This document shows positions 141 to 28,507 of a stretch of DNA of 28,507 bases, piece by piece. The position numbers and the translations under genes were made by a program. The stretch is taken from contig DOEZ01000087.1 in NCBI GenBank assembly GCA_003532715.1, positions 1 through 28,507 on the forward strand. The letters run 5' to 3'. The notes beneath the pieces are model-generated. The model searched no databases. It saw only the letters and a list, made by a program, of their open reading frames with translations, and was not told the DNA's origin. This stretch comes from Planctomycetaceae bacterium. GTDB lineage: Bacteria > Planctomycetota > Planctomycetia > Pirellulales > Thermoguttaceae. The stretch's first letter is position 1. Every line of letters begins with the position of its first letter.

Positions 141-1460
141 CTACCGATTCAACTGAACGCGGAAGTTCGCTCCTTGGATGAACACGTCTTGGCGGTTGTT
201 TTCCCCGAGAATGCCCATCAGCGACGATGTTCCGAATCGGTAGTCGATCAGGTTCGAGGAGCGGGCGATGTTATCCATCCAGAGCCCCGACCAACCGGCG
301 CCGAACGAGATATTGCGAGTCCATTGCCACTCGAGGTTCAGTCGCATCTCGATGCCCGGAGTGAATTCGTTCCTGTGCTGGGTATGCACGAAGGACGTCG
401 CTTCGAGCGCCAGCGGCACATTGGCCTCGGGAACGTGGCCGGGCAGGCTCGGCTCGTTCAGGAGTCCCGTGTTCGGATTCAGTTCCGACCCAATCGTGCC
501 CGTCTGCCGCAGGCTTTGGGCGTTGTAGCCGGCGAAGAAGCGACCTTCGGTGGAAAGGGTCCATCGTCCGTAGTTTTTGAACCATCGGGCCCCGATCTGC
601 GGACCGACGATGCGGTTGTCGGCGTCCTGATACCAGAAGCTATTCGCCAGGGAACCAACGTAGAGGAAGATCTGGTCTTCGTCCGGTTCATTGGGCACCC
701 CCTCCTCGTCGTAGCCGATAATGACGACCCCATCGACCGTCTCGCCCGCGATCGTGACCGGAACGAGATTTCCGTAGGCTTCGAGGCTGAAGCGCTCGTT
801 GAATTCGAGGTATCGGGCACCGCCGAAGAACTCGAAGTAACCGCCGCTGTGCATCTGATTGGTCCGCAGCATGTACATCAATTCGAGGCCCCAGGTCTCG
901 ACCCGGTTTCGGATGTCGGCCGTGGCGAAACTGACGGGCAGAGGTCGGATGATGGTGTTCAGTTCGTCCACGTAGCCGTCGAGGTGTAGAAAGTCGAGCG
1001 GCCCGCCCCATTCCTGGTCGTCGAAGACCATCGTCATGTGGGTGGTCGGTATCTGTTGATCTTGGGGATTCAGTCGCCAGGCGCTAAACAACAGGCCCTG
1101 GTGTCCGTGAATGAATCCGCCTTCGTAGCGTTGGCCGGTGACGAACTCGGCCGTGAAGATACTCGTGTCGTGGCTGTTGTTCTGGGTGGCCGTGTCCTCG
1201 GGATTTGGCCCGTACCAGACCACGCGGCCTTGCTCGCTGTATTTGCCGATGGTCGTGGTGTCGGGGGCGGAGATCGACCAGACCAATGTATCGAAGCCGA
1301 AGAAGAACCCTTCATTAGCCTTCTTCATACCACCGTAGGTGGTTTCGTTGTACGGTGCGAAGAGCTGCATGTCACGCAGACCCTGCGCCTGGGCCGGGAC
1401 CGCCGTGGACAGAGCGATGACTAGAGCGATCAGGCTCCCTGTTACGCGTTGGTATGACAT
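141..1460 (-). CDS. Outer-membrane beta-barrel protein, probably planctomycete BBP7 family (putative beta-barrel porin 7), 439 aa
   Basis: ATG at 1460, TAG at 141-143. Sec-type signal peptide MSYQRVTGSLIALVIALSTAVPAQA|Q. Amphipathic aromatic-rich strands (GFFFGFDTLVW, FEFFGGARYLEFNERF, NRIVGPQIGARW, EMRLNLEWQWTRNISFGAGWSGLW, DVFIQGANFRVQLNR) match my recollection of the BBP7 pattern. The CDS is secure; the family call is by eye. Confidence 0.75.
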   Translation of the reverse strand: MSYQRVTGSLIALVIALSTAVPAQAQGLRDMQLFAPYNETTYGGMKKANEGFFFGFDTLVWSISAPDTTTIGKYSEQGRVVWYGPNPEDTATQNNSHDTSIFTAEFVTGQRYEGGFIHGHQGLLFSAWRLNPQDQQIPTTHMTMVFDDQEWGGPLDFLHLDGYVDELNTIIRPLPVSFATADIRNRVETWGLELMYMLRTNQMHSGGYFEFFGGARYLEFNERFSLEAYGNLVPVTIAGETVDGVVIIGYDEEGVPNEPDEDQIFLYVGSLANSFWYQDADNRIVGPQIGARWFKNYGRWTLSTEGRFFAGYNAQSLRQTGTIGSELNPNTGLLNEPSLPGHVPEANVPLALEATSFVHTQHRNEFTPGIEMRLNLEWQWTRNISFGAGWSGLWMDNIARSSNLIDYRFGTSSLMGILGENNRQDVFIQGANFRVQLNR

Positions 1461-1471
1461 GGTCCTGTTTT

Positions 1472-1476
1472 ACCTC
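1472..1476 (-). promoter_or_regulatory. Possible Shine-Dalgarno site (GAGGT) for the barrel gene
   Basis: Minus strand reads GACCGAGGTAAAACAGGACC-ATG; GAGGT lies 11 nt upstream of the ATG. Confidence 0.35.
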
Positions 1477-1771
1477 GGTCTACGCGTGATAAGTATTGGC
1501 CCCCGAATCCCCGGAACGGAGATTGGGTGCATTTTGGCTGCGACGATAGTATCGGTCACACCAGTCGCAACAGTTGAGTAAGAAAGATAAACCCTGCGGA
1601 AAATACCGAGAAAAACCCCTCCACTAAGGGGGTTGATGCAGCGTTTTTACCAGAAGGTCCTCCCCAGATTCACGCCCATTCGTGTGTCAGCATCACCCAC
1701 TGAGTGGATCGACACCCCTCCGTGAGGTCGTATTACATGGCGCGTGGTGCTTGCGAATGAACCAAGAAGAG

Positions 1772-1811
1772 CAAAGGCGACTCGATCCGTGACGGAAGCA
1801 AGTCGCCTTTG
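1772..1811 (-). terminator. Candidate intrinsic terminator or stabilising hairpin downstream of the 6795-aa gene
   Basis: Perfect 11-bp inverted repeat CAAAGGCGACT (1772-1782) / AGTCGCCTTTG (1801-1811) enclosing a TCCG-TGA-CGGA mini-hairpin. On the minus strand the GC stem is followed by TTTGCTCTTCTT, a weak U-tract; it lies 85 nt after the TAA. Confidence 0.4.
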
Positions 1812-1832
1812 TGAAACGCGTATTGATCAGGA

Positions 1833-1860
1833 GATGTCTCTCGCGAGCATCGTTTTTTTT
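1833..1860 (+). terminator. Terminator-like hairpin plus T8 on the non-coding strand
   Basis: GATG-t-CTC-tcgc-GAG-CATC (7 bp, one bulge) followed by G and eight T (1853-1860). No plus-strand gene lies upstream. Confidence 0.25.
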
Positions 1861-1895
1861 GACGCGGCGAGGGTCCTTCGGAGACTTCGGTCGGC

Positions 1896-3440
1896 TTAGA
1901 TTTCCTCCCAGAGTCCTTCCGTGAAGACGAAATCAACCTCGTCAGTAATTTTCTTCTTGTCGCCCGACCCGGTCTGGTTAACCCAAACGTACTCGAAGTC
2001 GGCCACCCAGAGGCGGAAGTTCAGCTCACCGTTGGACAGATCGGCCCAGGCGTCCTCGCCGTCGCCGATCGATCCGTTCGCGGTGAGCAATTCGCCCAGC
2101 GAGGTGTCGTACAGATAGGCCTCGTCATCGCCACCCTTGCCGTAGGCCTGAACCGTGTCGAACCCGTACGCTCGGAAGGTATTGGCGGCGGTCAGCAGCC
2201 TCGCGTCGGCAGGTCGTCCGATGAACGTATCGACACCTTCGGTCCCGAAGAACCGGACTGTGTCGTTGCCCTGTCCGGCAAACGCCAAGACGTGCTGGAA
2301 GTTGCTCGCCGAGATCTTGAATCCGGCGCCGACGAGCGACATGTCGTTGGGGCTGGCGACCAGGAGATCATCGCCGGCTGAATCGTACAGATTCACGACG
2401 TCCTCGCCTCCGGCGCCGCCCACGGCCCTGGCCGTCGGGAACTTGTCGGCACGCAGGTAGAAATTCGCGCCTCGGAGCAGTGCATACGTCGGATCGGCTT
2501 CGAAGGTATCCGAGTCCGTCGAATCGTAGAACTCGGCGTCGTCGCCGGCGTGGGATGAGCCGATGGCGGCCACGTACCGGAATCCGTTGACCGTGACCTG
2601 GTACAACGCGTTCGCCTTGTCCTTCAACTGGGCGTAGTGGGGATAGCCGGTGAACTTATCGGCTCCGGCCGAATCGTACAGGTTGGCGTAATCGGGCCCA
2701 CCGTTTTCGGAATTCGCCTCGACGTAGCGGAAGCCGTTTGCCTCCACGTAATAGTCGCTTCCCAAGGTTGGCTCGATGCGGGCCTGGGTTGGCGTGGACC
2801 GGAACGTGTCGCTTTCGTTCGAATCGTAGAAGTAGGCGCGATCCGCAAGGATGGGATCGCCGGCGGCGTATCCCTCGCCGTAAGCGCGGGTTGTGTGGAA
2901 TCCCTCGGCGGCGACGACTTCGCCTCCGCCGGTGGTCATGCTGCCGAACTTCGGCCGGCCGACGAACGTATCGTTGCCGGTCGAGCCTCGGAGCACGGCC
3001 GTATCGGATCCGCCGGTTCCGGCGACGGCCAAGACCTGGTTGAAATCGGTGGCTTCGAGCGAATAGCCGGACCCGGTCATCGTGGCCAACCCGGGTCTTC
3101 CCTCGAACGCATCGTCGCCGGCGGCGCCGCGCATCGTGACGTCGTCGTTGCCACCGCCGGCGGCTGCTCGCATCACTTCGACATTGATGGTGTTGACGAG
3201 GTAACCGCCGCCGTGCGGACCCTGGAAGGTGGCCTTGTTGCTCCACATTTCGACGGACTCGTCGGCGGTGGAACCGTGGAAGATCACGGTATCGGTTCCG
3301 GCGCCGCCGTCGTACGCGATGGTATCGACCTCGGTGGCCAGATAGTTGTACGCAGCGCCGTTGATGATGACGGTGAGGGTTTCGCCGGCGAAGAACTCGA
3401 AGAGGTCGTCGCCGTCAGTGCCCGACACCTGGACCTCGCG
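1896..3440 (-). repeat. C-terminal block of 9 approx. 45-aa RTX-derived repeats (GGxDxAxLYDSxGxDxF...GFxxVxA) plus terminal motif EVDFVFTEGLW
   Basis: Repeats read directly from the translation; the same block ends the neighbouring giant protein. Confidence 0.8.
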
Positions 3441-6400
3441 GTTGACGATTGGGGGTCGCGACACGATGGCGACCGTGTAGTCTTCGACTTCGCCGTTATC
3501 GGCCTGACCCGTGTAGGAAAGTCCGCCGATCGTGCTGAAGCGGAATCGGGCATAGGAGTCCCCGACGACCGCTCCGGCGGGCACCTGGAAGTGCAGGGTG
3601 TTCGCGCCGGGCTCGACGAATGCGGCGTCGAAAAGGTGCTCGCCCGCGTCGTCCCAATCGCCGTCGCGATTGAAGTCGAGCCATGCGTCGATATAGCCGT
3701 ATGTCGAGGCCGTGACGGTGACCGAGGCCACGGTGCCTTGGGCAATCGCCGTGTTGAACACGACGCCTTGCTCGTCGTTCGAGAGGTTTCGATTATCGCC
3801 GTCGGCCGCGGCGGTGGGCTGGCCGTTGGGTTCCGCGTCGATATGGGCCGACTGCGGGCCGGCCGGGTCGCCCAGGTAGACGCCCGGCACGATGCGGTGC
3901 CGCGCGCCGTTGTCGACCAGGAGCGTCGGATAGGGCGCGGGCGCGTCGCCAAGATCGAGCACGCCGTCGTCGTTGAGGATCGAGACGACCGCCTGGTCCT
4001 TTCCATCGCGGATGGCGACGATATCGTCGTCGACCTCGATGGCCAACACGAAGTACTCGTCGAGTTCGTATTTCTGATCGCCCACGACGCGCAGGGTAAT
4101 CGTCTGGCTTGCGACCGGCTGGTTCTTGAGTCCGATGACGATGTCGTAATTGGATCCGTGCGCGGCGCGCCAAACCAATAGCGAATCGGAGACGGCCGGC
4201 TTCCATTCAGCGCCGGGCGTGTTCGTCACGTTGACGGAGCCCGTTCCGAGATTCAGGTCGTAGTAGTAAACGTCGTAGGTTGATCCGTTGAAGGCTCTCC
4301 AGACGACCTGGTTGCCTTGGATGCGAGGCTCTTCCTCGGAGAACATCGACGTGCTGGAGATGTTCCTCGGCGCGGTCTGGGCGATCGCGTTGTAATGATA
4401 GATCTCCCAGTTGCTTCCCGTGTTGCCTCGCCACACGATGTCGTTACCCGAAATGTCCGGGTAGCGATCGTGGGTCGAGTTGGTCGTGACGCGCGTGGTG
4501 GCTTCGGTCTCCATGTCGTACAGGAAGATTTCGTAATTGGTCGAGCTGACCTGCGATTCCCAGACGATCTTCTCGCCGTCGATGCGAGGCCACTGATCGA
4601 CGCGGCTGTTGCTGGTCACCTGGATGACTTCGGGCGCGTCGAGCGGGTTGACGTCGCCGTAGTAGGCCATGATCTCGGTGTCCGAAGCTCCGGACCCCCT
4701 GGTCCAGACGATGTTGCGACCGGATATCTGGGGATTCCGATCGTCGAGCGTGTTGTCGGTGAGATTGACCGGATTCGCGCCCGGATCGCCCAGGTTGGCG
4801 ATCTCGAAGACGAAGACCTGGTTGCTTCGGCCGTCGTTGCCCCACCACGTGATCAACGAGTCGGAGACGCGAGGATCGCGGTCGCTGTACGAGTTGTCGG
4901 TGACCTGGCGGGTGGTCGCGACGCCGTTGTTGAGCGAATAGGCGAAGACTTCGTCGTCATTTCCGTCGTTGCCGACCCAGACCACGTTGACGCCCGTCTG
5001 CGTGACGCAGACGTGGGGGACGCGATCGTTCGTGGTGTTGTCGGTCAATTGGATCACGTCGAACGTTCCGCGGCTGACGTCAACGGTGGCGAGGAAGATC
5101 TCCCAGTCGTTGCCGTCGAAGCCCTCCCAAACCACATAGTTGCCCGACACGCCAAAATCGTAGTCGCTCGTCGAGGTCGTGGTCAGAACGCGCGTATCCC
5201 AGGTCGGCGGCGGGGTTTCGCGCGGATCGATGGTTACCTTTCCGGACGCCGCGATGTAATCGCCGTCCTGCGTCGTGGCGGTTCCGTCGATGGTGTGATA
5301 TTGCACCTCGACCGGCGCACCAAAGGAATCGGTCAACGTGAGGGTTACCTGAACTTCGGTGTAGCCCTGGTGTCCTTCCACGACCCAAATGTCACTGACC
5401 GCGACGGACGGCTTGCGGTAGCTGCCGAAATTGGCGCCGTCGAGCGTCTCGTTCGCCTCGAGGAAGATGTCGTAGGAATGATCGGCGTTGCCGTGCGAGC
5501 CGTCGACGAACCAGACCATCTCGTCCGGATAGGTCAAGACCCAATCTTGGAGCGTCTCGTCGACAACCCGAACGACGTACTTCTCGGTTCGCCCGATCAA
5601 GCCGTCGAATTCGTAATAGCCGGTCTCGTTGACGTCGGTCGTGGAGAGATCGTCGGTCATGCTGACGACGTACGGCTCGACGGGCACTCCGTAGACATCC
5701 TTGTCCAAGATGCCGTTTTCGTTCATGTCGATGTAGACGGTCACGCCGGAGATGCCCTTTTCGTTGCCGTCGAATCGGCCGTTGTTGTTGCGGTCCTCGA
5801 AGATCCAGCCGTTGATTGCCGCCGATCCGCGGGCCATAACGACCTGGTAGTCCTCGACCTCGCCGTCGCGCGCCGCGCCGCCGTAGCTCACGTCTTGCTG
5901 CGTGCTCAGGCGGAATCGCGCGAAGGTGGTTCCCGCCGAAACGGTCATGGGAATCGTGACGGGAATGGTCTGGAGTCCGTCGACGACCGAGACGTCGAAC
6001 AAGACCTGCTCTTCGGCGGTGAAGACGCCGTCGACATTCAAATCGATCCAGGCGCTCAGGTAGGCCGCGGTCGCGTCGCCCATGTGGACTTCGACGGTGA
6101 TATTGGTCTGCTGTCCGGCCATGAATTGTTCGGGCAGCGTGATGCCGTCTTCATCGTCCAGATCGTTTTTGTCGTCGCCGAGCGCTTCGTGGTCGGGTTG
6201 TCCGTCGAGTTCGGCGTCGACGAGCGTGCCCAGGTAGAGTCGCCTGGCGCCTTGGCCGGGAGCGGGCCACAGCACGTGATAGGCCGCGTCTTCGCCCGAT
6301 CCATCCTGGCCGTGCGCGGTGACGCCGACCGTGCCCACCGAGCCGATCAGGCCCGAGCCATCGTTGTCCCGGTCGACCAGGTCGCTCAATTCAGCCTTGA

Positions 6401-9400
6401 AGAGAGCCGCCTGCTGGGTATTGATAGCCGCGACGACAGCCGCGGCGGTCGTTCGCAACGGATCGACGTCGATCAGGAGCACCTTGGTGGTCGCGTTGTA
6501 GGTGACGAACGCGATGTCGCCGACGGCCCGATCGTTGACAATGTTGATCTTGACTTCGTTCATTTCGGCGCCGGGGGTCACGGCCGTGATCAACATGTCG
6601 TTGTCGTACCCGGGGAGGATCAGTTGGGCGAAGGCCGCCTCGGACTTCTCGACCGTCGAATAGGAACGAGGCGCATCGCCGTAGTCGCGTGGTTCGGCGG
6701 CGATGATCACTTTGTAGTCCTCGACCTCGCCGTCGGACGCGGCGCCGGTCGGCTCGAGCGACACGTCGCTGCTGAGCCGGAATCGAGCGAACGTATGGCC
6801 GACCATCGTCCCGTCGGCCGTCGACGGCACGGTGAACACGACCGTGTTCGCGCCGGCCGTCAAGGGCTTCGAGTCGGCGATTTTCTCGTCGGGACTCCAA
6901 ACCCCGTCGCCGTCGAAGTCGATCCACGCATTGAGGTCTCCGCCGCTCATCGAGGCGGTCACCTGCAAGCTAGCGAGTTGGCCGGGAATGAGCCAGTCGG
7001 TGAAGACCACGCCATCCTCGTCGTTGAAAACCACGGGTTCCGGACCCGAGTCGTCGATGGGACCGTTCTTGTCGTCGCCCCTGGCGTCCGCATCGGGTTG
7101 GCCGTCGAGTTCATCGTCGGCGCGGCCGCCGAGGAAGAGCCCGCCGCCCAGTTCGTGGCGCGCGCCGTCGTCGGCCAACAGGGTTGGATAGGGGGCGGGA
7201 GCGTCGCCGTAGTCGCGCAGCACGTCGACGATCGCGACCTTGTAGTCTTCCACCTCGCCGTTGATCGCCAAGCCGGTCGGACCGACGGCGGGACCGATGC
7301 TCGTGCTGGTGAAGCGGAATCGAGCGAGCGTATCGCCGATGTATTGGCCGGCGGGCAAGACGAAGCTGACGTTGTTCACGCCGCGCGCGACCGTCCGTGC
7401 GAGGACGTGCTCGCCGGCGTCGTCGAAGTCGCCGTCGCCGTTGAGATCGATCCAGGCGTTGAGATAACCGGCTCGCGACGCCCTCACTTGGAGCGTGACG
7501 ACGGATTCCATGAGCAACGCCGAGGTGAACGACACGCCATCGTCCATCTGGTCGCCCGTCGCGTCGTTGATCGGATTGCCTCGATGGTCGACGGCCTGAT
7601 TGGCGTCGGCCTCGCCGGTGACTCCATAGCCCAGGTAGTAGTCGCCGATCAGCAGATGTCGGGCGCCGTCGTTTTCGAGCTTGGTCGGATAGATCGGATC
7701 GGGCGCATCACCGAAATCGACATGCGTCAGCGCCACGACATACGTGGCGGTGCCGTCCAACTGGTTGGCCTGCAACGGACTGCCAGCGACGTCCATGATG
7801 CCGTCGGGCCCGTTGTCGAGGACGATGGTGTAGGCGTTTCCGTGTTCCCACAGGCCCGCGGCGGCGATCAGGCTGATCACATCGTTTGCCGCGTCGTAGC
7901 GGAAGAAGTAATCGACGCCGGCGACCAGCGGTTCCACGCGGCCGCTGACGTACACGTGGACCTTGCTCGATTTGACCGAGTAGTCGTAAATCCCCGCGCC
8001 GGAGAGACCGTCGTTCAACTGGATCGAAATGACGGGGGTCGGCTGGCCGATGACGAACACCTGATCGAGAGCCGGGTTGAGATCGTTGCCAGCCGCGTCG
8101 TTATCCAGAGGATCGATGATCATCGCGGTCGGCGGATCGAAATCGACGCGATCGATCGCGCCTCGGTCCTTGAAGACGTTGGAGCCCGAGCCGGAAGGCG
8201 GCTGCGCCGACGGGTCGTCGACGCGCTGCTGGCCGTAGAGGTCGTAGTCCGGGGCAAGAATCGGGGATCGCGCGATTCCCAGCGGGTCGCGGACCTCGGC
8301 CATGGCGACGCGATCTTCGAGCGAATTGACCGCGCTGTCGATGGCCTTGCTGCCGGCGGCCAGGTAGAAGTTGCCGGTGTCCGCATCGACGAATAGTGGA
8401 TCGTTCGGGCCGAGGATAACGGCCGTGGCCGATTCGACGGCGCCGACCGCGTTGAGTCCGTTGCGCTGATACACATTAGCGCCGAGCACGGTGGTGCGCG
8501 ACGTTCCGTCGACGAATATGCCGACGTCGGTGTTGGCGACGATGTTATTGAGAATCGTCGGGCTGGCGTTGTTGACGACGAGGATGCCCGTGTCGGAAGA
8601 CGCCTCGATCGGGATTCCGGCCTCGCCCGACAGACGCCACACGTACGTGCCCGGATCCATCAGATCGGTCAGATCGGCGGCACTCTTCGGTCGCATCACG
8701 CTGATGAAGTTCTCGTAGTCGCCGGCATCGAAACCGACCTGGGCGCCCGCGCCGCCGAAGCCGCTTCCCCACTCGTCCGAATCGATGTCGCCGGTGGTCC
8801 ATTGCATGTCGTGGTAGACGAAGACCACGATGTCGCCGAGCGGATCGTCTTCGATATAGAGGGTGAACGTGTTCAGCTTGTCGGCGTTCGACGCGAAATA
8901 GCCCACGCCGACCCAGTCGATCTGGACGACGGCATTGCCTCGGGCGCTAGTGCCATAGGCCACGCGGACCTCGCCCGCGCCGCGCGTGTCGACGTCGCCC
9001 CAGAAGGGCGCGATGATCGGCATGTCCTGCGGAAAGCCCTCGGGCGTGAAGTCGTACAACGGGTAATCGAACGTTATGTTTCCGTTGTTGTTCACGTACA
9101 TCTGGGTGTACGCATTGCCGTAGAAGTTCAATTCGAAGCCGATGTCGAGCAGGGAGCTCGACTCGTCGTCATTCGGCGGCATCACGACGTCGCCCGGCTC
9201 GATTAGACTGATCATCGCATCGACGCCGTTTCCGTAGACCGTGTTGTTGACGATCTTTCCGAACGGCGTGGCCGCCATGGCGCCCTGGTTGTTCGGATCG
9301 CCGCTGAACAGGATGCCGGCGACGCCGCTGTGAACGATCAGGTTGTTCTGGATCGTCACGCCGGGAACGAGTTTCTGGTCGTTGACCTTGACCAACGGAG

Positions 9401-18400: not shown

Positions 18401-21400
18401 TGTGGACTCCGCCGGGCACGCCGTCGGCGTCGCCGTCGAAGAGGGTTCCGGTCGCGTCGACCAGGTGGCGGTTCGACTCGACCACCGACGGAACGAACGT
18501 CATTCTCAGGTCGTAATTGCCTTGGGTCGTGCCGCCGAGGCCGCTGCCGGCCACGTCGAGATCGTATTCGGTGTTGCCCGTGCTGGCCACCGTTACGTAA
18601 TAGACACCCGGCTCCAACTCGACTTCGAGGTAGGAGTCCTCACTGTAGAAATCGTCGTTTCGAGCGATAATTCGGCCTTGGGCGTCGTGCAGCGTCACGA
18701 CGCTGTCGAGCAGACTGAGGCTTTCGAGTCGTTCGGCGGCCGTCTCGGCGCTGAACGTGCCGCTCGTTTCGATTTCGAACCGATAGACGTCGACGTCGAT
18801 ACTGTCGGGCCGGTAGACGTGCAGGCCGTGGATGGTATCGACGTTGCCCGGGAAGAGAGGCTCGACCGAGGCGTCGTAGTACTCGCCGCCGTCGCTGGAG
18901 CCCATGATGGTTCCGACGGGCATGTCGTAGGTGTGGCCGAACCCCAGCAGGTGGCCGATTTCGTGCATGGCCGTCCGAAACCAATTTTGCCCATAGCCGT
19001 CTACCCACGATTCGGCCTGGTCCATGATGGCCACCCCGCCGCCGGCCAATCCGGCGACGCCGCCGGGGCCCGTCGGAATCGTCGGACTGAGGACGCGGAG
19101 ATCGCCCGTCGCGATCGTCAATCCCGTCGCATTGGTTCCGGTGCGTGTGTCCTCGATGAACGTGACGCCCAAGTAGGCGCCGTAGAGTTCGAAGATTTCC
19201 CGGGCGCGCTGTTTTTGCTCGGGCGTGATCAGGTTATACGCGGGACTTCCGTTGGGCAAGGCGCCGTAGACGTTTTTGAAGTTGTAGTAGATGATCGCCG
19301 TGCCATATTGTTTGTCGGCGGCGATGGCGCCAAGGTGCGCCTCGCCGGCGAGCGTCGAGGGAAGCTCGCGATGGCCGAGTTCGCTGATCGCGCCGGGCCA
19401 GTTCAAATCGTAGGGCAACGCCTCGACGGCCGAGGAGATGACGATGCTCTGGCCCTGGGTGGCCGTCCCGAGGACTCCCATGTCGGTCGCCGACGCCAGC
19501 GTGTCGCCCACGACGTAGGCTTCGGTAATCGACGTGGCGATTTCCTGGTATTCGTCGCCGATACGCAGCCGATACGAGCCCGCGCCGAAAGCGGCCAGGT
19601 CGCTGGCGAAGGTCAGCACGACTTTGTTCGCGACCGGGTCGTACACGACCGACGTCGGCTGAATTTCGACGTCGTCCTCGGGTGTGGCCGTCTCGTTGGT
19701 TTGCGACAGGCGATAGAAGTTGGTGTTCTGGGCCGAGGCGACGTTGAGCGTGTCGTCATTGAAGTAGATTTCGATCTGGTCACGATGCTGCTGGAGATTT
19801 CCGGCGGCGTCGCGATAGGTCGGTTGGGGCACGACCGAAACGACTTGGGCGCCCAGGTCGAGCGTGAACGTGATGCTCAGATCCTCTCCCTGATGGAAGA
19901 TGCCGCCATCGACGTTCTTCAGCACGACGTCGCCCTCGCCCCCGGCGCCGACGATCGTAATCATGTACATGTCGTCGGGCAACGTCTCGGCAAAGCGGAC
20001 GATAACTTCGTTCGGACGTTCGCCGATGCCGATCCAACCATAGTCCACGACGACGTCGTTGGCGTTGCCGATCACACGGTCGCCGCCGGCGCGGACGAGT
20101 CGAATCGCGCCGAGCGTGGTCGAGTCGATGACCTGGGACTCGTTGAACTTGAGCGTCAGATCTCTCGGGGCGATATCGAGAATGGTTCCGTTGACGATCG
20201 TTCCGCCCTGATTCGGGACGAGGGCCACCAACTCGGGTCCCACCATCGTCACCGGACCGGGGCCCGGACCGGGCTCTTCTTCCGTCGTGCCAAAAACGTT
20301 CAACTCCCACGAGCGCAACGTGCCCGTCGTGCCCGTGAGCAAATCTCGCACTTCGAGAGTCCATTCGCCTTCGGACGCCTCGCCCCAGTGGCGAGCCGAA
20401 GTGAGTGTCCACTCGTCGAAACTGCCGGACATGTGCCAGAAAGCGACACTACTCGACTCGGCCAGTACGGGCTTCGTTCCATCGGGCGAAACCAGTACGA
20501 TTTCAAGGTCTGCCGGCGACAGATGACCAATGTCAACCGTCACCTCGACCCATTCAATCTTCTCAACCGAGTCATCAAGCGTTACGCTTGAGCGCACGCC
20601 CGTGGAACCGCCATCGGGAATGCCCGCATTAACCATCGTTCTGCCACTGCCCGTCGATATTTCCGCCGAGACGTTTTCCCACTCGAAGGCCAAGTCAACC
20701 GCCGCCGCTGCGTCAACGGCGCCAAAACCGTAGTTATGATTGACGTGGTAGCCCGCGGCATTCTCGGTCCAGTCAGGATTCTCGGGATCGTTCAGGCTGG
20801 CCGTCTCGACCAGAATGTGTTGGACGTCGCGATAGGTCAGCCCGGGATTTGCTTCGAGCATCAAGGCAATGACGCCGGAGACCAGAGGCGCGGCTGACGA
20901 AGTGCCACCGAAAGTGGAAGTGTAGTTGATGTCGGGAAGGAAGTCGCGAGGAAGTTCACCGGTGCCCGTCTCATTGTACCCATCTTCACCCGTTCGATCA
21001 GATGTAACAATACCGTCAACAACATCACTCTGCGAGTCGTACCCCCAACTCGAATGTCCCGATATGAGCAGTGACGCACCCGGATTCGAGTACTCGGCAT
21101 AGGTGCCGTCCGCGCCGATCGCGGCTACCGCAATTGTCTGCCGCAAGCTCGCGAGCACCAGATAGTTTGTGTTTGCCGCATCTTCTCGACTGTTTCCGGC
21201 GGAAAAAACATAGATGCTTCCCAAACCGTCGCGACCGGTTGCCACGCCCGTTTCGATCGCCGCCAACGTGAGCGGTCCCACAGCCTGAAGATAGCCGCCT
21301 GGCCCCCAACTATTGTTGTAAATATCGATCTGTTCGAGTTGATGCAGGAGCGAACTGGACATCTCCACATCGGTCGCAAACCCACCGATCAGGCGAATAC

Positions 21401-22283
21401 CCGCCAATTGAGCCGCTGGCGCGGAACCGCTGACCCCGAGAGAGTTGTTGCCGACAGCGCCAGCCACGCCGGCCACGGCCGTGCCGTGATTGTCCGGCCC
21501 AAAAAAGATGCTGATGCCTGGAGACGGATCATTGTCGCCGTCACGGTAGTCGTAACTGAGATCCGCACGGATATTGTTGACCAAATCAGGATGGTCCATT
21601 TGCAGGCTGTCGTCGACAATCCCGATGATCACGCCAGCTCCGGTAACGCTATCCCACGCGGACACAACGTTGGCATCAACGCCGGGAGTGCCGCCAGTCT
21701 GTCCCGTGTTCTGCAAATGCCACTGTTCGCCGAACAAGGAATCGTTTGGAACCGCCATGGGCACCAACTTCTCGGCGACCAACGGATAATAGTAATCGAT
21801 TCCCTCGGCCGCTTGCAGCGTGTTGGCCACGGTTACCCACGACGTTGTCTCCGGGAACTCCCAAATCGTCGCATTTGACAAAACGGGCGCGTACTGTAGG
21901 AAATCGGCGTTGAGCGAGGCGGCGAGTTGCGGGGCGCAGGTGTCGGCCTTGCTTTCGTTGACGCCGACGACCCATTGATAGGTCGAGGCCAGAAGCTCCT
22001 GGTCGTAGCCCGAAAGATCGGACGCCCTGTAGACGGCGCGCGACAGGTTGTCGCTCAAGTAGTTGTAGTCGGTCATCGGGCAGACGATTTGTTCGAGGTC
22101 GTCGAAGCCCGGGGGCGAGGTGATGCTCAACAGCACTCGCTGCTCGAACGTCTCGACCCGAAGCGAACGGCTTCGAAGAGACCCCAACACATCACGCCGG
22201 CCGGGCCACGCGTTCTTGATCTTGGCCGCACTCTTCGGCCGACCAACTCCGGACCAACGGCGAAACGTATCCCAGATCATCAT
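1896..22283 (-). CDS. Giant extracellular multidomain protein (6795 aa): S8 protease/P-domain, metzincin-like, PPC, beta-helix, FG-GAP x2, NIDO, GEVED x4, SdrD-B, Calx-beta, beta-propeller, C-terminal RTX-like repeats
   Basis: Uninterrupted 20.4-kb ORF, ATG at 22283 with GAGGAG 8 nt upstream, TAA at 1896-1898. Strong GC3 bias in this frame (143/160 in eight sampled lines). Recognisable motifs along its whole length. Confidence 0.95.
   Translation of the reverse strand: [6795 protein letters not shown]
3465..3956 (-). other. GEVED domain 4 ([11 protein letters not shown]...NGEVEDY)
   Basis: DxGDAP start, [24 protein letters not shown] and GEVEDY motifs. Confidence 0.85.
3966..5411 (-). other. 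Calx-beta domain split by an 8-repeat beta-propeller (about 4110-5210; TolB-like or Methanosarcina surface-protein-type repeats)
   Basis: Calx-beta N-half VSDIWVVEG...[11 protein letters not shown]...[16 protein letters not shown]; C-half [11 protein letters not shown]...ELDEYF...VSILNDD. Eight xxLTxN...DxxPxISGxxIVW...EI(F/Y)xY repeats lie between them. Confidence 0.75.
5412..5822 (-). other. SdrD B-like domain
   Basis: [35 protein letters not shown]...TGYYEFDGL...YVVR...NFG pattern. Confidence 0.75.
5835..7718 (-). repeat. Three tandem GEVED domains (7230-7718, 6702-7214, 5835-6686); the third carries an internal insert of about 100 aa
   Basis: Each has D(F/Y)GDAP...ARH/AYH...LG...AWIDxNxDG...ARFR...GEVEDY. 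Confidence 0.85.
8598..9224 (-). other. NIDO (nidogen-like) domain
   Basis: [47 protein letters not shown] and [12 protein letters not shown] are hallmark NIDO motifs. Confidence 0.8.
9534..10571 (-). repeat. FG-GAP/VCBS-type repeat block 2, seven Ca-binding DxxxDGxxD-type repeats
   Basis: [63 protein letters not shown]. Confidence 0.85.
15350..17204 (-). other. Right-handed parallel beta-helix (pectin-lyase-like) region of three related units
   Basis: Three (F/L)TSxYDxxxG...GDW units, repeated NN/N-ladder rungs ([16 protein letters not shown]) and WDDTDIVHV twice. Confidence 0.65.
17205..18236 (-). repeat. FG-GAP/VCBS-type repeat block 1, seven Ca-binding repeats
   Basis: [63 protein letters not shown]. 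Confidence 0.85.
18530..18810 (-). other. PPC (bacterial pre-peptidase C-terminal)-like domain; further PPC-like units near 14810-15190 and 13820-14165
   Basis: DVDVYRFEI...[20 protein letters not shown]...[17 protein letters not shown] pattern. Boundaries are approximate. Confidence 0.65.
18903..18965 (-). other. Metzincin zinc-binding motif [11 protein letters not shown] (aa 1107-1117) with Met-turn (TIMG, M1127); M10/matrixin-like metalloprotease
   Basis: Intact HExxHxxGxxH followed 10 residues later by Met. Confidence 0.8.
20286..20640 (-). other. Proprotein-convertase P-domain
   Basis: [28 protein letters not shown]...[26 protein letters not shown]...[12 protein letters not shown]. Confidence 0.85.
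20679..21749 (-). other. Kexin/furin-like S8 serine protease catalytic domain, triad D224/H266/S462 and oxyanion N364 intact
   Basis: GIVDDS (D at 21612-21614), NHGTAVAG (H at 21486-21488), FSAGN (N at 21192-21194), [34 protein letters not shown] (S at 20898-20900), NHNYGFG. Confidence 0.9.
22125..22169 (-). other. Planctomycete extracellular / LEPRxLL-type N-terminal motif ([15 protein letters not shown], aa 39-53)
   Basis: Variant of RxLxxExLExRxLL after a basic leader with no hydrophobic segment. Confidence 0.75.
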
Positions 22284-22291
22284 GTCTCGGT

Positions 22292-22297
22292 CTCCTC
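22292..22297 (-). promoter_or_regulatory. Shine-Dalgarno site GAGGAG of the 6795-aa gene
   Basis: Minus strand TTC-GAGGAG-ACCGAGAC-ATG, 8-nt spacing. Confidence 0.75.
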
Positions 22298-22315
22298 GAA
22301 ATATACCCTGAAGCG

Positions 22316-22336
22316 GCGGCGCGAAATTCGCGCCGC
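22316..22336. repeat. Perfect 10-bp inverted repeat GCGGCGCGAA-A-TTCGCGCCGC
   Basis: Arms 22316-22325 and 22327-22336 are exact reverse complements; no U-tract on either side. Confidence 0.7.
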
Positions 22337-22382
22337 GCCCTCGTTCCCTAACAGGTCAAATTGATTGTCCGCGTGTCGTTTC

Positions 22383-22397
22383 CCGCGAGGGTCGCGG
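22383..22397 (-). repeat. Small hairpin CCGCGA-NNN-TCGCGG immediately after the stop codon of the upstream giant gene
   Basis: 6-bp all-pairing stem with a 3-nt loop, 1 nt after the TAG at 22399-22401. Confidence 0.35.
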
Positions 22398-22398
22398 T

Positions 22399-23751
22399 CT
22401 ACCGGTCTCTCCAATTTCCTTCCATGGCCAGCACGAAATCGAGTTCCGACGCGACGTCCTTCGTGTCGTCGCCGCCTTGCATGGACTTCGCGACAACGCT
22501 CTCGAAACAGCAGGCCCAGTAGTTGAACTGATCGTTCGACAACCGGAGCCAGTTGTCGGCCGCATCGAGATGGTCGGCCATCGCCGAATCGTACAGCACG
22601 GCCTGATCGTATCCGCCGTTCTCCTCGCGTCCGAAGACGTTCACCTGGCGGAAGCCGTGGGCGCGGTTCGAGTAGGCGTTGCTCGACAGTTGAGCGTAAT
22701 TCTGCGCGGTCAACAACGTGTCGTCGCCCGCCGAATCGTACAGCACGGCCAGGTCGTTGCCCTGGCTTCCGTAGCCGGTGACGTAGCGGAACGAATCGAC
22801 TTGGATTTTGTATCCGTCGCCGGAGAGCGCGCCGTAATTCGGACCCGCAACGAAGGTGTCGTCGCCGGCCGAATCGTACAGTTGGGCCGTGTCGGTCCCG
22901 CCCTGGCCATAGGCCAGCACGAACGAGAAGCCGTCGGCACGGCAGTAGAAGCCGTCGCCCTGGAATTGGGCGTAGGTCCGGTCGGCCTTGAACGTGTCGT
23001 TGCCGGCGGAGCCGTACATCTTGGCGGTATCCGCACCGCCGGCGGTCGAGGCGACCACCATCCCGTCGAACCCCTCGGCATAGAGGTAGTACGTCGATTG
23101 GTCGTCGCGCAACTGGACGTAACCGGCCGTCGACTCGAAGCGATCGTTACCGGGCGAGTCGGCGAAGTTAACGGTGTCCAAGCCGCCCGCCGTGGCGAAA
23201 GCCTTGACGTTGTCGAACGACTTGGCGACGATCGTGTAGTCGCCGTCGGTCAACGCGGCCGATTGGTGCGAGGCCGTGAACGCGTCGTCGCCGGCCGCGT
23301 CGTACAGCGTCGCCTGATCGTAGCCACCCGCCTCGGAACGCACTTCGACGGTCTCGAAGGCGTTGGCGGCGAGGCTGAATCCCGCGCCGGTCAGGCCCGT
23401 CTGAGCCTTGCGGCCCGTAAACGTGTCGTCGCCGGCCGAATCATGGAGAAGCGCCGCGTCGTTTCCGCCGCCGCCGCTGGCCGTGATCGATTCGACGTTC
23501 TCGACCGTGACGGTGTAGTCGATGCTCGACAAAACGCCGCGGGTGGGCCACAGCTCGACCGAATCGTCGGCGGCCGACCCGGTGAACACGACCGTATCCG
23601 CGCCGCCGAGTCCGTCGAAGCGGACCGTGGCGGTGGTGCTCGGCACGCTCTGCACGACGCCGTTGAGCTTGACGATCCACGCACCCGGCACCGGGCCGCC
23701 GACGAACTCGAAGACGTCGTTGCCCGAGGTGCCCGTCAGGACCAACTCGGT
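22399..23751 (-). repeat. C-terminal block of 8 approx. 45-aa RTX-derived repeats plus terminal motif ELDFVLAMEGNW
   Basis: GG(Y/T/A/L)[14 protein letters not shown]...GFxxVxA repeats read from the translation. Confidence 0.8.
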
Positions 23752-26700
23752 CGAAGTCGTGGAGCTGGCGCCTTCCTGGACGGGCGGATCGATGTAGCGC
23801 GAGTAGATCGCCGGCATTTGGATGGTGGTCGGGATGGGCGTCTGGTCCGTGGCGTCCGGGGGAGGCAGCACGAACGTATCGACCGAAGTGCTCACGCCCG
23901 CCCAAACCACCACGTAGTGTCCGTTGGCGTCCATCGACACGGCCGAGCCGTATTGGTCGCCCACCGTCTCGGCGTTCACGCGGAACTCGCCGACCGGCGT
24001 CGGTCCGACGCCCGGATGAATGAAGTCGGTTCCGTCCGAGTTATACATGCGGGCGCAAATACAGTAGTCGCGGTGATTGGTTTCGTCGGGCAGCGAATCC
24101 TGATTGAACGACGTCCAAGTGACGACGAAGCCGAAGTCTTCATCCTCCACGACGGTCGATGTCATGGCGACGTCCGGCTGGAACTGGTCGTGGATCACGG
24201 TTTCATTCACGAGGAACTCGCCGCCCACGGTGGTTCCATCGGCCTTGTAGATCTGGCCGTAGACGCCGTAGCCGCTGCCGTCCTGCGAGCTTGCCCAGAC
24301 GATCACGAAGTTGCCCTGGCGATCCATGGCCACGGCGGGGCTGTCCTGATCGCCCGTTCGATAGGTGTTGACGCGGACCTCGGTTCCTCGGCGAGCCCCG
24401 GCACTGTCGAACCGCTGCGCGTAGACGCCCACGCCGTTGATGTCGTGCTCACTTTGCCAGGTGACGACGAAGTTGCCCAGTCCGTCCATCGCAACGCCCG
24501 AATTGCCCTGGGCGCCAACGGTGGTGGTCTTGTTGACGAGGAACTCGTCGCCTTGGGCCGAGCCGTTGGCGCGGTACATTCTCGCGTAGACGCCGTCCTG
24601 GCTTCCGTCCTGGCCGAAACTGGTCCAGGAGACGACGAAATCGCCGTTATTGGGATTCATCGCCACGGCCGGCTCGTCTTGCTCCGTGTTGACCCCGTAG
24701 ATACCGCTCGTGGTGAACTGGCTGATGCGGAACTGCCCGCCAAGCTTCATTCCGTCGGCGTCGAACCGTTGTCCGAAGACGCCCGTTTCGTCACCCAGGT
24801 CGAAGCCGTCGCCCGACCACACGACCACGAAGTTGCCGGCATCGTCGATGGCCACGGCCGGTTCGGTCTGGACTCCGATGGTCAAGGTGTTAACCAGAAT
24901 CCGTTCTCCCCACTCGCGACCGTCGGAATGGAATCGTTGGGCCACGATGTTGGCTTCGAAAGCCGGATCGGCCACGAGGATCGGCAAGGTTGCCGGGTCG
25001 ACATTCGGGTCCAAAGGAATGTTCGTCGCATCCACCACTTCGGTATACTCGACCCATACGACGACATAGTCGCCGTGCGCGTTGCGAGCGACGTCGGGCC
25101 CGTCCTGATAGTCGATCTGGGCAAGGTTGTCCTGTCCGACGATCGTGCTCGTTCCGCCGACCAACTGGTCAAGGTCGTTCGCGCTGGGGTCGCCGGGATA
25201 CGTGTTATTCACGGTAAACTGGAAGCCGAATCCGCCGGTGGGGCTGGTGATCGGATCGAGCGGAATCTCGTTGCCCGCCGCATCGTATTGCCGGCCCGTG
25301 CCGTAGGGTTGATAGCCGGTTCGCGCCAGCGCGTTGCCGGCCGCGTCATGGATGGCCGACCGCGCGACCAACGTGTACGTGCCGTTGCCGAGCGCCCCCT
25401 GGATTCCGTTCGGTCCGCTAAAGGTGACCGCGGCGACCCATTTATTCAGTGTCGCGTCGAAGTAGAAGGTGACATGGTGGATCGACGTCGATACTTCCTC
25501 GCCGCTGCCGTTGATCAGGGCCCAGTTGTTCACATTTTCGACGCTGTTCAAGCCCTCGCTGCCGCCCACGCCCGTATTGGCGGTGTTCAACTGCTCATCG
25601 AAAACGACCAACAGGGTCGTCGGATTGCCGAAGATATTGTCGCCCGGCCCGACCAGGGCCTTGTTGCCGTCGGCCAGTCGCAATTCGGTCGCATTAGGTC
25701 CGGCGTTGTCGGCGCTCTGTTCGTACCGACGCACGAAAATACCGTGCCGGTCGCCCACGCCGGCGCCGGCCCAGACGAGAACCACGTCTCCGTCGGGGGT
25801 CATCGCCACCGACGGGAACTGCTGGATGCCGCTCTCGGTCTCGTTTGCACGCTGCTGCGTGGTCGTCGGCGCCGAGTTCGTCCCGGCCGTCGCCGCATGG
25901 AACCATCGCCCGAACACGCCGGCGTCGTCCGTGTCGCCCACCAGTTCCGTGTTGAGCGTGTCGAGCGGATCGGGTTCGCAACCGTTGCCGTTCCAGAAAA
26001 TCACGAAGTCGCCGTCCGCATCCATCCCAATCGTCGGATTGACCTGGTCCTGGTCGAGATACTGCGTAACCTGATCGGTCAGCGGAATATTCTCGTCGGC
26101 CGTCACGACCGTATTGGCCTGCTGCGCCTCGTCGATTCGCGGAGCGCCGAACTCGTCAAACTGCCGGTAGTAGATGCCGTAGCTGTCCGGCGCGTCAGTG
26201 CCTCCAAGGTCATGGTCCTGATAGGCCTCGTACACGACGATGAACGCCCCCGAGTTGTCCATGGCCACTTGCGGGTTGCGGGCATTTCGGGCAAAGTCGT
26301 TGCCGCCGGCGGCTTCATCTAGAACGTCGTGGGTCGAATCGGGGCTGATTACTTCGCCCGTATTGACCTGAATGTCGCCGAGGGGCGCTCCGTCCACGTC
26401 GAGCGCCGGATTGTTGTCGGCGTCGAAGAGCCTCGCCAAAACATTCGAATCGGTCACGACACCGGACGTGCCGAGCACGGCTTGGTCCCACGTCACGGCT
26501 ACGTTGCCGTTGTCGTGGATGGCCACGCTCGGGTTTACCAGGAAACTGTCGACTCGCTCGGGTCCGTTGACGCCCGGCAAATCATCGACATTGACCCGGA
26601 ACTCATCCCCCATCGCCTCGCCGCGGAAATCGAACCGCTGCGCCAGGACGTTGTTGAAGTAACTGAAGTTCTGGCCCGCCGTTCCCCACACGACGATGTA

Positions 26701-28506
26701 GTTGCCGTAGCTGTCCATTGCCACCGCCGGGTTGAACTGCTCGCCGACGGTCGTCGTGTTGACCAAGGTCTCGATTTGCTCAATCGGCACAATCACGCCG
26801 TTGATGATCTCGGATCCCGTCCGGTTCCGGTACGGATCCTGGTCGATGCGCTGATCGCGGCTGTTGAGCACGCGCTCGCCGGTGGCCGTGAACCGTTGCG
26901 AATAGACGTCCAAGGTCCCGTCGGACGCTTCGCTTTCCCAAACCACGATGAAATCGCCGTCGGCGTCCATGGCCACGGCCGCGTTGCCCTGGTTGCCTTC
27001 GACCAGACGGTTGACCAAGAATTCGGAGGTCAACGGAACGTCGTTGCGGTTGTAGAGACGAGCGTAAACTCCCGTCCCGTTGGGGTCGTTCGGATCGTCC
27101 TTGCCGTAGCTGGTCCACACCACGACGTAGTCCCCGTCGTGATCGACCGCGACCGACATGGTGGTGACCTCGCGAGCGTAGCCGGTTCCCTTCGGTTCCG
27201 AAAGGACCTGCACCTCGGAAACACTCTGGTTGACTCGCCGCTCGGCCCCGAGTGCGTCCTCCGCTTGCGGAACGACGAACTCGAACTTGTATCCGCTGTA
27301 TCCGGTCGAATCGGACGACGTGCCCGCAATGCCATCGCGTTCGCCGTCGAGCTTATTGCCGTCGGTGTCCCTGACCAAATCGCGGATCGTAAGCACATAA
27401 CCGCCCGCGCTCAAACCGGGAACGCCGGAGGCCAGCCCGTTGCCGTCGAACGTAATCACCGCTTCGTAGCGATGCGTCACGTTGTTGTACTCGAACTCGA
27501 CGCTGCCGACGCCGCGATGGATCTCCGAACCGTTCTGTTCGAGAATCCAGTTATTCGGATTCAGAATGCTCTCGATGGCCGGAGCGCGCACGCCGCCCGC
27601 GACCGTCTCCATTTCCGAAAGCTCTTCGTCGAACACAATGACCAAACCGTCGAGTCCCACGCTCGCCACGCCGCCCTCGAACAAAGGAGTGAGGGAGCCG
27701 CCGACGCCCGGAACCAGCACGTCGGTCACGATCGGACCGGCAAGATCGGCCAGCAGTGGATATTCGACGCTGAAGAAGACGTCATAGGAGTCGGGAGTGG
27801 CGCTCTCGCCGGTCCATACGACGACGGCGTTGTTGTTCGCGTCGACGCCGACCGACGGCAGCCATTGCATTCCCTTGGTCGTTTGATTGACTCGGGTCTC
27901 GCCGCCGACCTTATTGACACCCACGTCGAACCGCTGGTAGAAGACGCCGTACTCCGACGTGTCTTGCTCGCGTGGCTGGCTGCCGTAGCCGCACCAGGCA
28001 ACGGTGAAATTGCCCGCGCTGTCCATGTCGACCGACGAGTAAAGCTGATTGCCCTCGACGGTCGTGTTGACCAGCGTCTCCAGCGAAGCAGCCGCGCTGC
28101 GGGTGAATTCAAGAGCCCATCCCCACAGACGCCCGCCGTCGGGATCATGGGCCTGATTCACGACGTTGCCGTTAATGTCGATGACGTCGTATTCGTCCGG
28201 ATCGTTTGGCGGATCGCGGTCTTCAATCCTCAGGAACCACGTTCCCTGCGCGTTCTGGCCGTCGAAGGCGGCTAGAGCCTGCTCGGGCACGAAGATCTCG
28301 TCAAACGGCGGCAGGCCAACGAGGATCGATTGACCCGCCTCGTCGTCGAGAATCGTTCCGGTGAAGTTGGCGCCGTTGCCCGTGCCTGGAGCGCCGACAC
28401 CGTCCTGGTCCCCCTGTCGCGGCACTTGGCCGAACAACTGGATTTCCGTCCCGTTGGGACTGATCAGATAGACGAACAGGTCGGACGGATCTTCGTGATC
28501 GATGGT
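22399..28506 (-). CDS. Giant repeat protein, 5'-truncated by the window edge (>2035 aa): P-domain, 16 propeller-like repeats (2+7+7), two Ig-like domains, C-terminal RTX-like repeat block
   Basis: The frame stays open from the window end (TIDHEDPSDLFVYLISPNGTEIQL...) to TAG at 22399-22401. The TTG at 28437 in the ORF track lies mid-P-domain and is not the real start. Confidence 0.93.
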   Translation of the reverse strand, partial: TIDHEDPSDLFVYLISPNGTEIQLFGQVPRQGDQDGVGAPGTGNGANFTGTILDDEAGQSILVGLPPFDEIFVPEQALAAFDGQNAQGTWFLRIEDRDPPNDPDEYDVIDINGNVVNQAHDPDGGRLWGWALEFTRSAAASLETLVNTTVEGNQLYSSVDMDSAGNFTVAWCGYGSQPREQDTSEYGVFYQRFDVGVNKVGGETRVNQTTKGMQWLPSVGVDANNNAVVVWTGESATPDSYDVFFSVEYPLLADLAGPIVTDVLVPGVGGSLTPLFEGGVASVGLDGLVIVFDEELSEMETVAGGVRAPAIESILNPNNWILEQNGSEIHRGVGSVEFEYNNVTHRYEAVITFDGNGLASGVPGLSAGGYVLTIRDLVRDTDGNKLDGERDGIAGTSSDSTGYSGYKFEFVVPQAEDALGAERRVNQSVSEVQVLSEPKGTGYAREVTTMSVAVDHDGDYVVVWTSYGKDDPNDPNGTGVYARLYNRNDVPLTSEFLVNRLVEGNQGNAAVAMDADGDFIVVWESEASDGTLDVYSQRFTATGERVLNSRDQRIDQDPYRNRTGSEIINGVIVPIEQIETLVNTTTVGEQFNPAVAMDSYGNYIVVWGTAGQNFSYFNNVLAQRFDFRGEAMGDEFRVNVDDLPGVNGPERVDSFLVNPSVAIHDNGNVAVTWDQAVLGTSGVVTDSNVLARLFDADNNPALDVDGAPLGDIQVNTGEVISPDSTHDVLDEAAGGNDFARNARNPQVAMDNSGAFIVVYEAYQDHDLGGTDAPDSYGIYYRQFDEFGAPRIDEAQQANTVVTADENIPLTDQVTQYLDQDQVNPTIGMDADGDFVIFWNGNGCEPDPLDTLNTELVGDTDDAGVFGRWFHAATAGTNSAPTTTQQRANETESGIQQFPSVAMTPDGDVVLVWAGAGVGDRHGIFVRRYEQSADNAGPNATELRLADGNKALVGPGDNIFGNPTTLLVVFDEQLNTANTGVGGSEGLNSVENVNNWALINGSGEEVSTSIHHVTFYFDATLNKWVAAVTFSGPNGIQGALGNGTYTLVARSAIHDAAGNALARTGYQPYGTGRQYDAAGNEIPLDPITSPTGGFGFQFTVNNTYPGDPSANDLDQLVGGTSTIVGQDNLAQIDYQDGPDVARNAHGDYVVVWVEYTEVVDATNIPLDPNVDPATLPILVADPAFEANIVAQRFHSDGREWGERILVNTLTIGVQTEPAVAIDDAGNFVVVWSGDGFDLGDETGVFGQRFDADGMKLGGQFRISQFTTSGIYGVNTEQDEPAVAMNPNNGDFVVSWTSFGQDGSQDGVYARMYRANGSAQGDEFLVNKTTTVGAQGNSGVAMDGLGNFVVTWQSEHDINGVGVYAQRFDSAGARRGTEVRVNTYRTGDQDSPAVAMDRQGNFVIVWASSQDGSGYGVYGQIYKADGTTVGGEFLVNETVIHDQFQPDVAMTSTVVEDEDFGFVVTWTSFNQDSLPDETNHRDYCICARMYNSDGTDFIHPGVGPTPVGEFRVNAETVGDQYGSAVSMDANGHYVVVWAGVSTSVDTFVLPPPDATDQTPIPTTIQMPAIYSRYIDPPVQEGASSTTSTELVLTGTSGNDVFEFVGGPVPGAWIVKLNGVVQSVPSTTATVRFDGLGGADTVVFTGSAADDSVELWPTRGVLSSIDYTVTVENVESITASGGGGNDAALLHDSAGDDTFTGRKAQTGLTGAGFSLAANAFETVEVRSEAGGYDQATLYDAAGDDAFTASHQSAALTDGDYTIVAKSFDNVKAFATAGGLDTVNFADSPGNDRFESTAGYVQLRDDQSTYYLYAEGFDGMVVASTAGGADTAKMYGSAGNDTFKADRTYAQFQGDGFYCRADGFSFVLAYGQGGTDTAQLYDSAGDDTFVAGPNYGALSGDGYKIQVDSFRYVTGYGSQGNDLAVLYDSAGDDTLLTAQNYAQLSSNAYSNRAHGFRQVNVFGREENGGYDQAVLYDSAMADHLDAADNWLRLSNDQFNYWACCFESVVAKSMQGGDDTKDVASELDFVLAMEGNWRDR
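23782..25176 (-). repeat. Seven repeats of ExxVN...Q..PxVAMDxxGxFVVxW...GV(Y/F)xQR(F/Y) (propeller B)
   Basis: Seven approx. 55-80 aa repeats counted in the translation. Confidence 0.7.
25207..25713 (-). other. Ig-like domain (SbsA/Big_5-like), paralogous to 27265-27753
   Basis: AGP...LLVVFDEQL...NVNNWALI...V.F...GTYTLV.....DAAGNAL pattern shared by both copies. Confidence 0.55.
25714..27252 (-). repeat. Seven repeats of the same VN...VAMD.DG.F.VVW family (propeller A)
   Basis: Seven repeats counted, several with long acidic loop insertions. Confidence 0.7.
27265..27753 (-). other. Ig-like domain (SbsA/Big_5-like)
   Basis: AGPIVTDV...LVIVFDEEL...NPNNWILE...GGYVLTIRDLVRDTDGNKLDG. Confidence 0.55.
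28090..28506 (-). other. Proprotein-convertase P-domain, C-terminal part
   Basis: IDHEDPSDLFVYLISPNGT...NFTGTILDDEA...PF...L..FDGQNAQGTWFLRIED...GRLWGWALEF. Confidence 0.8.
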
Positions 28507-28507
28507 C

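Follow-up and report, generated by a model that had tools for sequence, protein, structure and literature searches.

In two-partner secretion (TpsA/TpsB, type Vb) the gene for a large exoprotein adjoins the gene for an outer-membrane barrel; TpsB belongs to the Omp85 barrels, with 16 strands and POTRA domains, and the TpsA cargo has an N-terminal TPS domain besides its Sec signal peptide. Two other classes of exported protein bear comparison with the locus described here: the RTX substrates of type I secretion (LapA, CyaA, serralysins, RsaA), which are giant multidomain proteins ending in an Asp-rich, all-beta repeat solenoid, and type IX cargo, whose C-terminal domain is Ig-like and about 80-100 aa long. 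Within the planctomycetes, a leader motif with a presumed role in export, RRLxxExLExRxLLA, is borne by eight of the ten longest Tuwongella proteins (PMC8567305, citing Studholme 2004 for the motif), and a three-HlyD/M50/SecA_DEAD module related to type I secretion has been described (Kamneva et al. 2015, PMC4452313). How planctomycetes export and retain megadalton proteins with an LExRxLL leader has been an open question since 2004. The family BBP7 (PF07585) is entered in Pfam as the putative beta-barrel porin-7 of Planctomycetota; in the literature we searched, we found no paper discussing BBP7 as a planctomycete beta-barrel porin-7.

Gene order and domain content

The window, by which we mean the whole 28,507 nt stretch analysed, is one entire contig (C170) of a 70%-complete metagenome-assembled genome (MAG) in 762 contigs, whose close relatives carry the annotation Planctomycetaceae or Planctomycetia. 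It holds three open-reading frames, giant 1, giant 2 and a barrel in that order, all on the minus strand, and this layout bears out the original prediction of three co-oriented genes. Giant 1 (22399..28506, minus strand), the first of two types which we refer to as g1 and g2, encodes >2035 aa, its 5' end being lost at the contig end. A P-domain opens the fragment and is the sole Pfam match on the visible part, the body of which is made of 'DxDGDFVVVW'-type repeats. The orthologue of giant 1 in G003, a genome of the same genus, lies inside a 6401-aa open frame, and a relative in G021 is 7626 aa long with the leader RRLMVDPLEERQLLS. Giant 2, of the g2 type (1896..22283, minus strand; delimited by its open-reading frame and Pfam matches), encodes 6795 aa and carries an S8 subtilase, a P-domain, FG-GAP repeats, PPC, a metzincin-like motif, NIDO, a beta-helix, four to five GEVED domains and Calx-beta. 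Its orthologues in G370, P0018 and P0032 are 6789-6898 aa long. In G003 the g2 orthologue (L013:2-18179) is broken into three overlapping open-reading frames of 2563, 1805 and 1829 aa, by frameshifts or assembly errors. Besides the P-domain, the leader and a C-terminal module are all that the two types have in common, and judged by their sequences they are two unrelated, non-orthologous kinds of giant.

The N-terminus of giant 2 is basic and is followed by the leader motif RSLRVETFEQRVLLS (residues 39-53, read from the translation; 22125..22169, minus strand), with no hydrophobic stretch. Compared by eye with the published RRLxxExLExRxLLA, seven of the ten specified positions agree. The NCBIfam model LEPR-8K (NF012209), run on a short fragment of giant 2, gave 16.6 bits against a cut-off of 17 (E 0.0045); with the default window the NCBIfam search did not pick up the leader, and the short fragment was needed. 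PF07595 (Planc_extracel) had no match in giant 2 at E-values up to 10. The prediction of a LEPRxLL-type leader without a hydrophobic signal peptide thus holds for the missing signal peptide and for most of the motif, and the expected confirmation by PF07595 failed; since NF012209 falls just under its cut-off and PF07595 is silent, we call this leader borderline by HMM. The window giants resemble the giant LEPR-XLL surface proteins of planctomycetes in megadalton size, in their mosaic of extracellular domains and, in giant 2, in the basic N-terminus with its motif, but differ in scoring borderline or not at all with the HMMs and in adding a C-terminal solenoid module of 450-500 aa. A protein of ~1262 aa that precedes the barrel in G014 (L018:1791-5588) has the leader RRLRCEALEAREML and lacks the repeat module, and the string AVDYLMWDL near its end recalls the terminal motif of that module.

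A C-terminal solenoid module shared by the giants

The ends of giant 1 and giant 2 align by BLASTP over ~425 residues with 36% identity (E 5e-61). The block shared by the two C-termini, as originally noted from the letters, is therefore real, but it was put at about 60 aa and in fact spans 450-500 aa. In giant 1 the module occupies 22402..23745 (minus strand; delimited by BLASTP against the end of giant 2, with an HMM match at 22405-23736), and in giant 2, where it was delimited by AlphaFold2 and alignment, it takes up residues 6290-6795 (1899..3416, minus strand). It is built of repeats of roughly 45 aa on the pattern GGxDxAxLYDSxGDDxF...GF..V.A and terminates in VDF(L/V)F.EG.W, after which 0-5 residues remain. 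The copy in giant 2 has the Asp-rich turn motif GGxDxAxLYDSxGDDxF and the terminal cap VDFVFTEGLWEEI; AlphaFold2 models it as a regular, all-beta solenoid (pLDDT 92.3, pTM 0.86), in which the terminal motif is predicted to form a packed solenoid cap rather than a free tail. Among solved structures the module comes closest to RTX beta-rolls (CyaA, serralysins, lipases, RsaA), at TM-scores that are low and do not exceed 0.23; for the RTX domain of CyaA the match probability is 0.97 and the TM-score 0.23.

The giants are thus like the type I substrates in being giant multidomain proteins that end in an Asp-rich, all-beta solenoid, yet the repeat is ~45 aa long rather than the nonapeptide GGxGxDxUx, giant 2 also bears an N-terminal leader, and PF00353 (HemolysinCabind) found no match on the giants. 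From type IX cargo the module differs in size and fold, being a solenoid of 450-500 aa where that cargo has a small sandwich domain. In our searches the C-terminal module was covered by neither a Pfam nor an NCBIfam model. A profile search collected 4280 representative clusters at 50% identity, 2038 of them at E <= 1e-30, in proteins of ~650 to 8000 aa that in many cases have the module at the very end, and as many as about eight module loci occur in a single related genome. The module represents a large solenoid family of about 4300 clusters for which there is no existing model. In the phylum-wide module search only three candidates were scored in each genome and genuine copies went unnoticed, among them the barrel-adjoining giant of G370, so the tally of 5/401 is unfit for use as a frequency.

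The barrel belongs to a divergent BBP7 subfamily

The third gene (141..1460, minus strand) encodes an outer-membrane beta-barrel of 439 aa, as assessed by Pfam, AlphaFold2 and fold search. The protein has a Sec-type signal peptide, MSYQRVTGSLIALVIALSTAVPAQA (residues 1-25), with an N-terminal helix at residues 3-23 ending in AQA, and the expectation that a signal-peptide-bearing barrel would follow the giants was correct. Membership of BBP7 was likewise confirmed by HMM, at 49 bits against the PF07585 gathering cut-off of 26 (43.6 bits in the genome-wide search); the match covers residues 268-418 and model positions 183-322 of 350, that is, the C-terminal half only. As three canonical BBP7 paralogues in the same MAG reach 320-356 bits, we assign the window barrel to a divergent subfamily. 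It shares with BBP7 the score, the signal peptide, the predicted barrel and the planctomycete distribution, and differs from canonical members in being single-copy, in having a conserved upstream element of its own and in being the sole BBP7 group found beside giants. AlphaFold2 models about 12 long strands (pLDDT 86, pTM 0.81) with no periplasmic domain, Pfam found no match to POTRA, Bac_surface_Ag or ShlB on the protein, and Foldseek places highest a Legionella porin associated with Dot/Icm, two omptins (Pla and OmpT) and OpcA. The barrel has 149 homologues at E <= 1e-10, with BBP7 in all among the matches listed, and occurs in 36 of 41 related genomes at a single copy per genome.

Conserved linkage of barrel and giants

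We searched the DNA upstream of barrel homologues with the module HMM, including nine metagenome contigs taken into the survey for their length alone. The gene directly upstream of the barrel, on the same strand, encodes a module-bearing giant in 12 of 20 judgeable orthologous loci and in one locus from another family, counts that are inflated by relatedness and do not represent independent events, because all the pairs fit, and may be derived from, a single ancestral g1-barrel arrangement. The paired genomes are G000, G001, G003, G023, G022, G021 and G370, all of one family, together with G032, which belongs to another family of the same taxonomic order. Five of the nine metagenome contigs are paired: P0018 (a 6898-aa g2 giant), P0032 (6823-aa g2), P0017 (4219-aa g1), P0048 (4778-aa g1) and P0033, where only a giant remnant lies upstream of the barrel. 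The other four (P0029, P0036, P0119, P0105) are unpaired, as are the barrel orthologues of G024, G015 and G010. The neighbour is of g1 type in G021, G370, G032, P0017 and P0048 and of g2 type in G023, P0018 and P0032, and the order g1-g2-barrel is found in the window and in G003.

The genes outside the giant-barrel pair vary between loci, including those downstream of the barrel, and the pair is kept while barrel identity drops to 32-43%. P0033 and P0036 have an identical set of genes downstream of the barrel, with the giant remnant upstream in P0033 alone. A tree of 24 barrels has the paired loci spread over one clade (support 91/96), together with unpaired members. The original prediction had proposed testing whether BBP7 genes in general are enriched beside giants. 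Five genomes hold 18 BBP7 genes, of which three adjoin giants and all three belong to the subfamily of the window barrel, whilst none of the 14 other BBP7 genes in the same genomes lies next to a module-bearing giant (0/14). The enrichment therefore applies to one subfamily, in 12/20 loci plus the case of G032, and not to BBP7 at large. For this single-copy subfamily the adjacency to giants is not due to chance.

Module proteins are multi-copy and most have no barrel alongside; unrelated genes follow three of the four module proteins in G370 and those found in G410 and G310. In G009, G410 and G310 module proteins are present and we found no homologue of the window barrel. Conversely, the barrel and the element upstream of it persist in G010, G013 and G015 (92-97% complete), from which the module protein is absent.

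Several further arrangements were observed around these genes. On contig C664 of the window MAG (C664:3-3782) a canonical BBP7 gene is convergent with a large open-reading frame, the last ~120 aa of which weakly match the module end (E 4e-11), and a similar convergent layout of BBP7 and large frame occurs at C716:1-2834 of the same MAG and at L053:3983-11390 in G021; a module search of L053 gave no match, and the C716 frame is absent among the matches listed. In P0105 (L050:1-8068) two g1-like giants run divergently to the barrel and have a DUF4915 gene between them, and in G021 a frame similar by eye to the DUF4915 gene (L068:246-1562) lies 5' of the g1-type giant. A convergent AMP-binding/PP-binding/aminotransferase gene is often found 3' of the barrel, and yajC-secDF in some loci. 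These genes, seen at L046:11630-15004, L051:12078-15347, L047:3937-10889 and L048:12245-17690, make up a second conserved neighbourhood of the barrel.

An upstream element and probable separate transcription

A conserved element of 65 nt (1540..1604, minus strand; ATTTTCCGCAGGGTTTATCTTTCTTACTCAACT-N16-CCGATACTATCGTCGC in the window) lies about 85-150 nt 5' of the barrel ATG. It precedes each of the 34 distinct barrel homologues in nearly unchanged form, with or without a giant, across an order-level spread of genomes and even where barrel protein identity is ~25%, and marks every member of the barrel subfamily. There is a single copy per genome; copies outside the window include L042:17946-17978 and L044:9885-9917. 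An Rfam search of the giant-barrel intergenic region returned nothing relevant and RNAalifold found no consensus structure in the conserved part of the upstream region, which together suggest that the element is probably a dedicated, gene-specific promoter or operator; its spacing presumably resembles that of ECF-type promoters. A GCGAC/GTCGC hairpin noticed by eye was dropped, as several sequences break the pairing.

In every paired locus, giant and barrel are separated by about 350-490 nt. In the window, a terminator-like hairpin, CCCCTTAGTGGAGGGG followed by a T run (1616..1631, minus strand), lies between the giant 2 stop and the element, and hairpins of this kind occur at 4 of the 10 paired loci, compared with 0.8 on average for shuffled sequences. 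The barrel is thus probably transcribed separately from the giants, in which case the barrel transcript would start just 3' of CCGATACTATCGTC and the giant transcript would end at the hairpin. Independent transcription and regulation of the barrel had been named in the original prediction as evidence that would speak against its translocating or anchoring the giants; the conserved element and the hairpins do point that way, at the level of sequence.

Possible roles of the barrel

We tentatively favour the reading that the barrel is an accessory partner which docks or stabilises the giants at the cell surface and which also has a function of its own. The giants would leave the cell by a leader-dependent route encoded outside the window, and the barrel would serve at the outer membrane in holding them, not in their passage. 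It would be a separate but conserved neighbour, probably with its own promoter, downstream of module giants across one family and into a second. A docking partner is more likely than an export channel because the barrel is too small, probably forms its own transcription unit and is retained in genomes that lack giants, and it must have a function of its own because it is kept where the giants are gone. Against docking, there is one barrel per genome for up to about eight module loci (4280 clusters overall), and the terminal motif of the module is modelled as a packed cap that offers no free tail. When the mature barrel was co-folded with the entire module of 506 aa the score was 0.00, which is no evidence either way. 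A docking role would explain how planctomycete surface fibres are retained, and whether or not it holds, the vague expectation of 'BBP7 beside giants' is now narrowed to testable objects, namely the barrel subfamily, the solenoid module family and the 65-nt element.

A serious if somewhat doubtful alternative is that the barrel is unrelated to the giants, a general, single-copy outer-membrane porin or structural protein under its own regulation, and that the adjacency is inherited and slowly eroding. The same element precedes 34/34 homologues whether paired or not, once per genome, and the barrel is found in 36/41 related genomes, three of them without a module protein. Unpaired orthologues are readily found (G024, G015, G010, P0029, P0036, P0119), P0033 and P0036 are alike downstream with the giant remnant in P0033 only, and terminator-like hairpins separate giant from barrel. 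However, the pair outlasts a fall in barrel identity to 32-43% and changes in the outer flanks, which would be unusual without a functional tie, and two non-orthologous giant types occupy the same position.

It is improbable that the barrel is an uptake channel in a capture-and-import pair, where binding domains and proteases tethered on the giants would release or hold substrates and the barrel would admit the products. The S8 subtilase and metzincin-like motif of giant 2 would suit such a role, as would the Pfam description of BBP7 as a putative porin, and the barrel could work alone in genomes that lack giants; but the oldest partners, those of g1 type, display the P-domain only and no protease domain, the modelled barrel is narrow and its loops may close it, and no transport genes are linked to it. 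Least credible of all is the original proposal that the barrel is a dedicated outer-membrane translocator of the giants by two-partner-like logic, which would fit the conserved same-strand adjacency with module-bearing giants and the lack of a canonical type I component above curated cut-offs in five genomes, but fares badly on the barrel (about 12 strands, neither of Omp85 type nor with POTRA or any other periplasmic domain, and closest in fold to small omptin- or OpcA-like barrels), on the cargo (no Sec signal peptide on giant 2 and no haemagglutination-activity or TPS domain among the Pfam matches of the giants) and on distribution (one barrel for many module proteins, module proteins where no barrel homologue was found, and barrels retained in genomes lacking giants).

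A candidate export route

As the barrel is unlikely to be the channel, attention turns to other loci for the exporter of the giants. The type I secretion models TIGR01842 and TIGR01843 scored above their curated cut-offs in 0/5 genomes, the 70%-complete window MAG included. In G370, a complete genome of the same family as the window MAG, genes for a GAF-HlyD, a plain HlyD and an M50 protease-HlyD protein stand in a row (L069:7670-13089), and the window MAG has a GAF-HlyD gene, 53% identical, at the edge of another contig (C252:246-2300). G370 thus holds the module of Kamneva et al. 2015 (PMC4452313) in full, and the window MAG one of its genes; the genes lie outside the window and are not adjacent to giants. 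We regard this three-HlyD/M50 module as the best candidate for a leader-dependent exporter of the giants.

Combined with the docking role that we favour for the barrel, this suggests a more specific and rather unlikely scheme, in which the barrel subfamily would be the docking component of a planctomycete-specific display pathway: the leader would direct the giant to the three-HlyD/M50 module, the solenoid would fold outside and the barrel would hold it. If true, the pathway would be a secretion-and-anchoring system without a homologous counterpart among known types, and it would explain why barrel and giant are retained together. The type I models also gave sub-threshold, generic ABC and HlyD matches, among them an adjacent ABC/HlyD pair in G032 that falls below the cut-offs.
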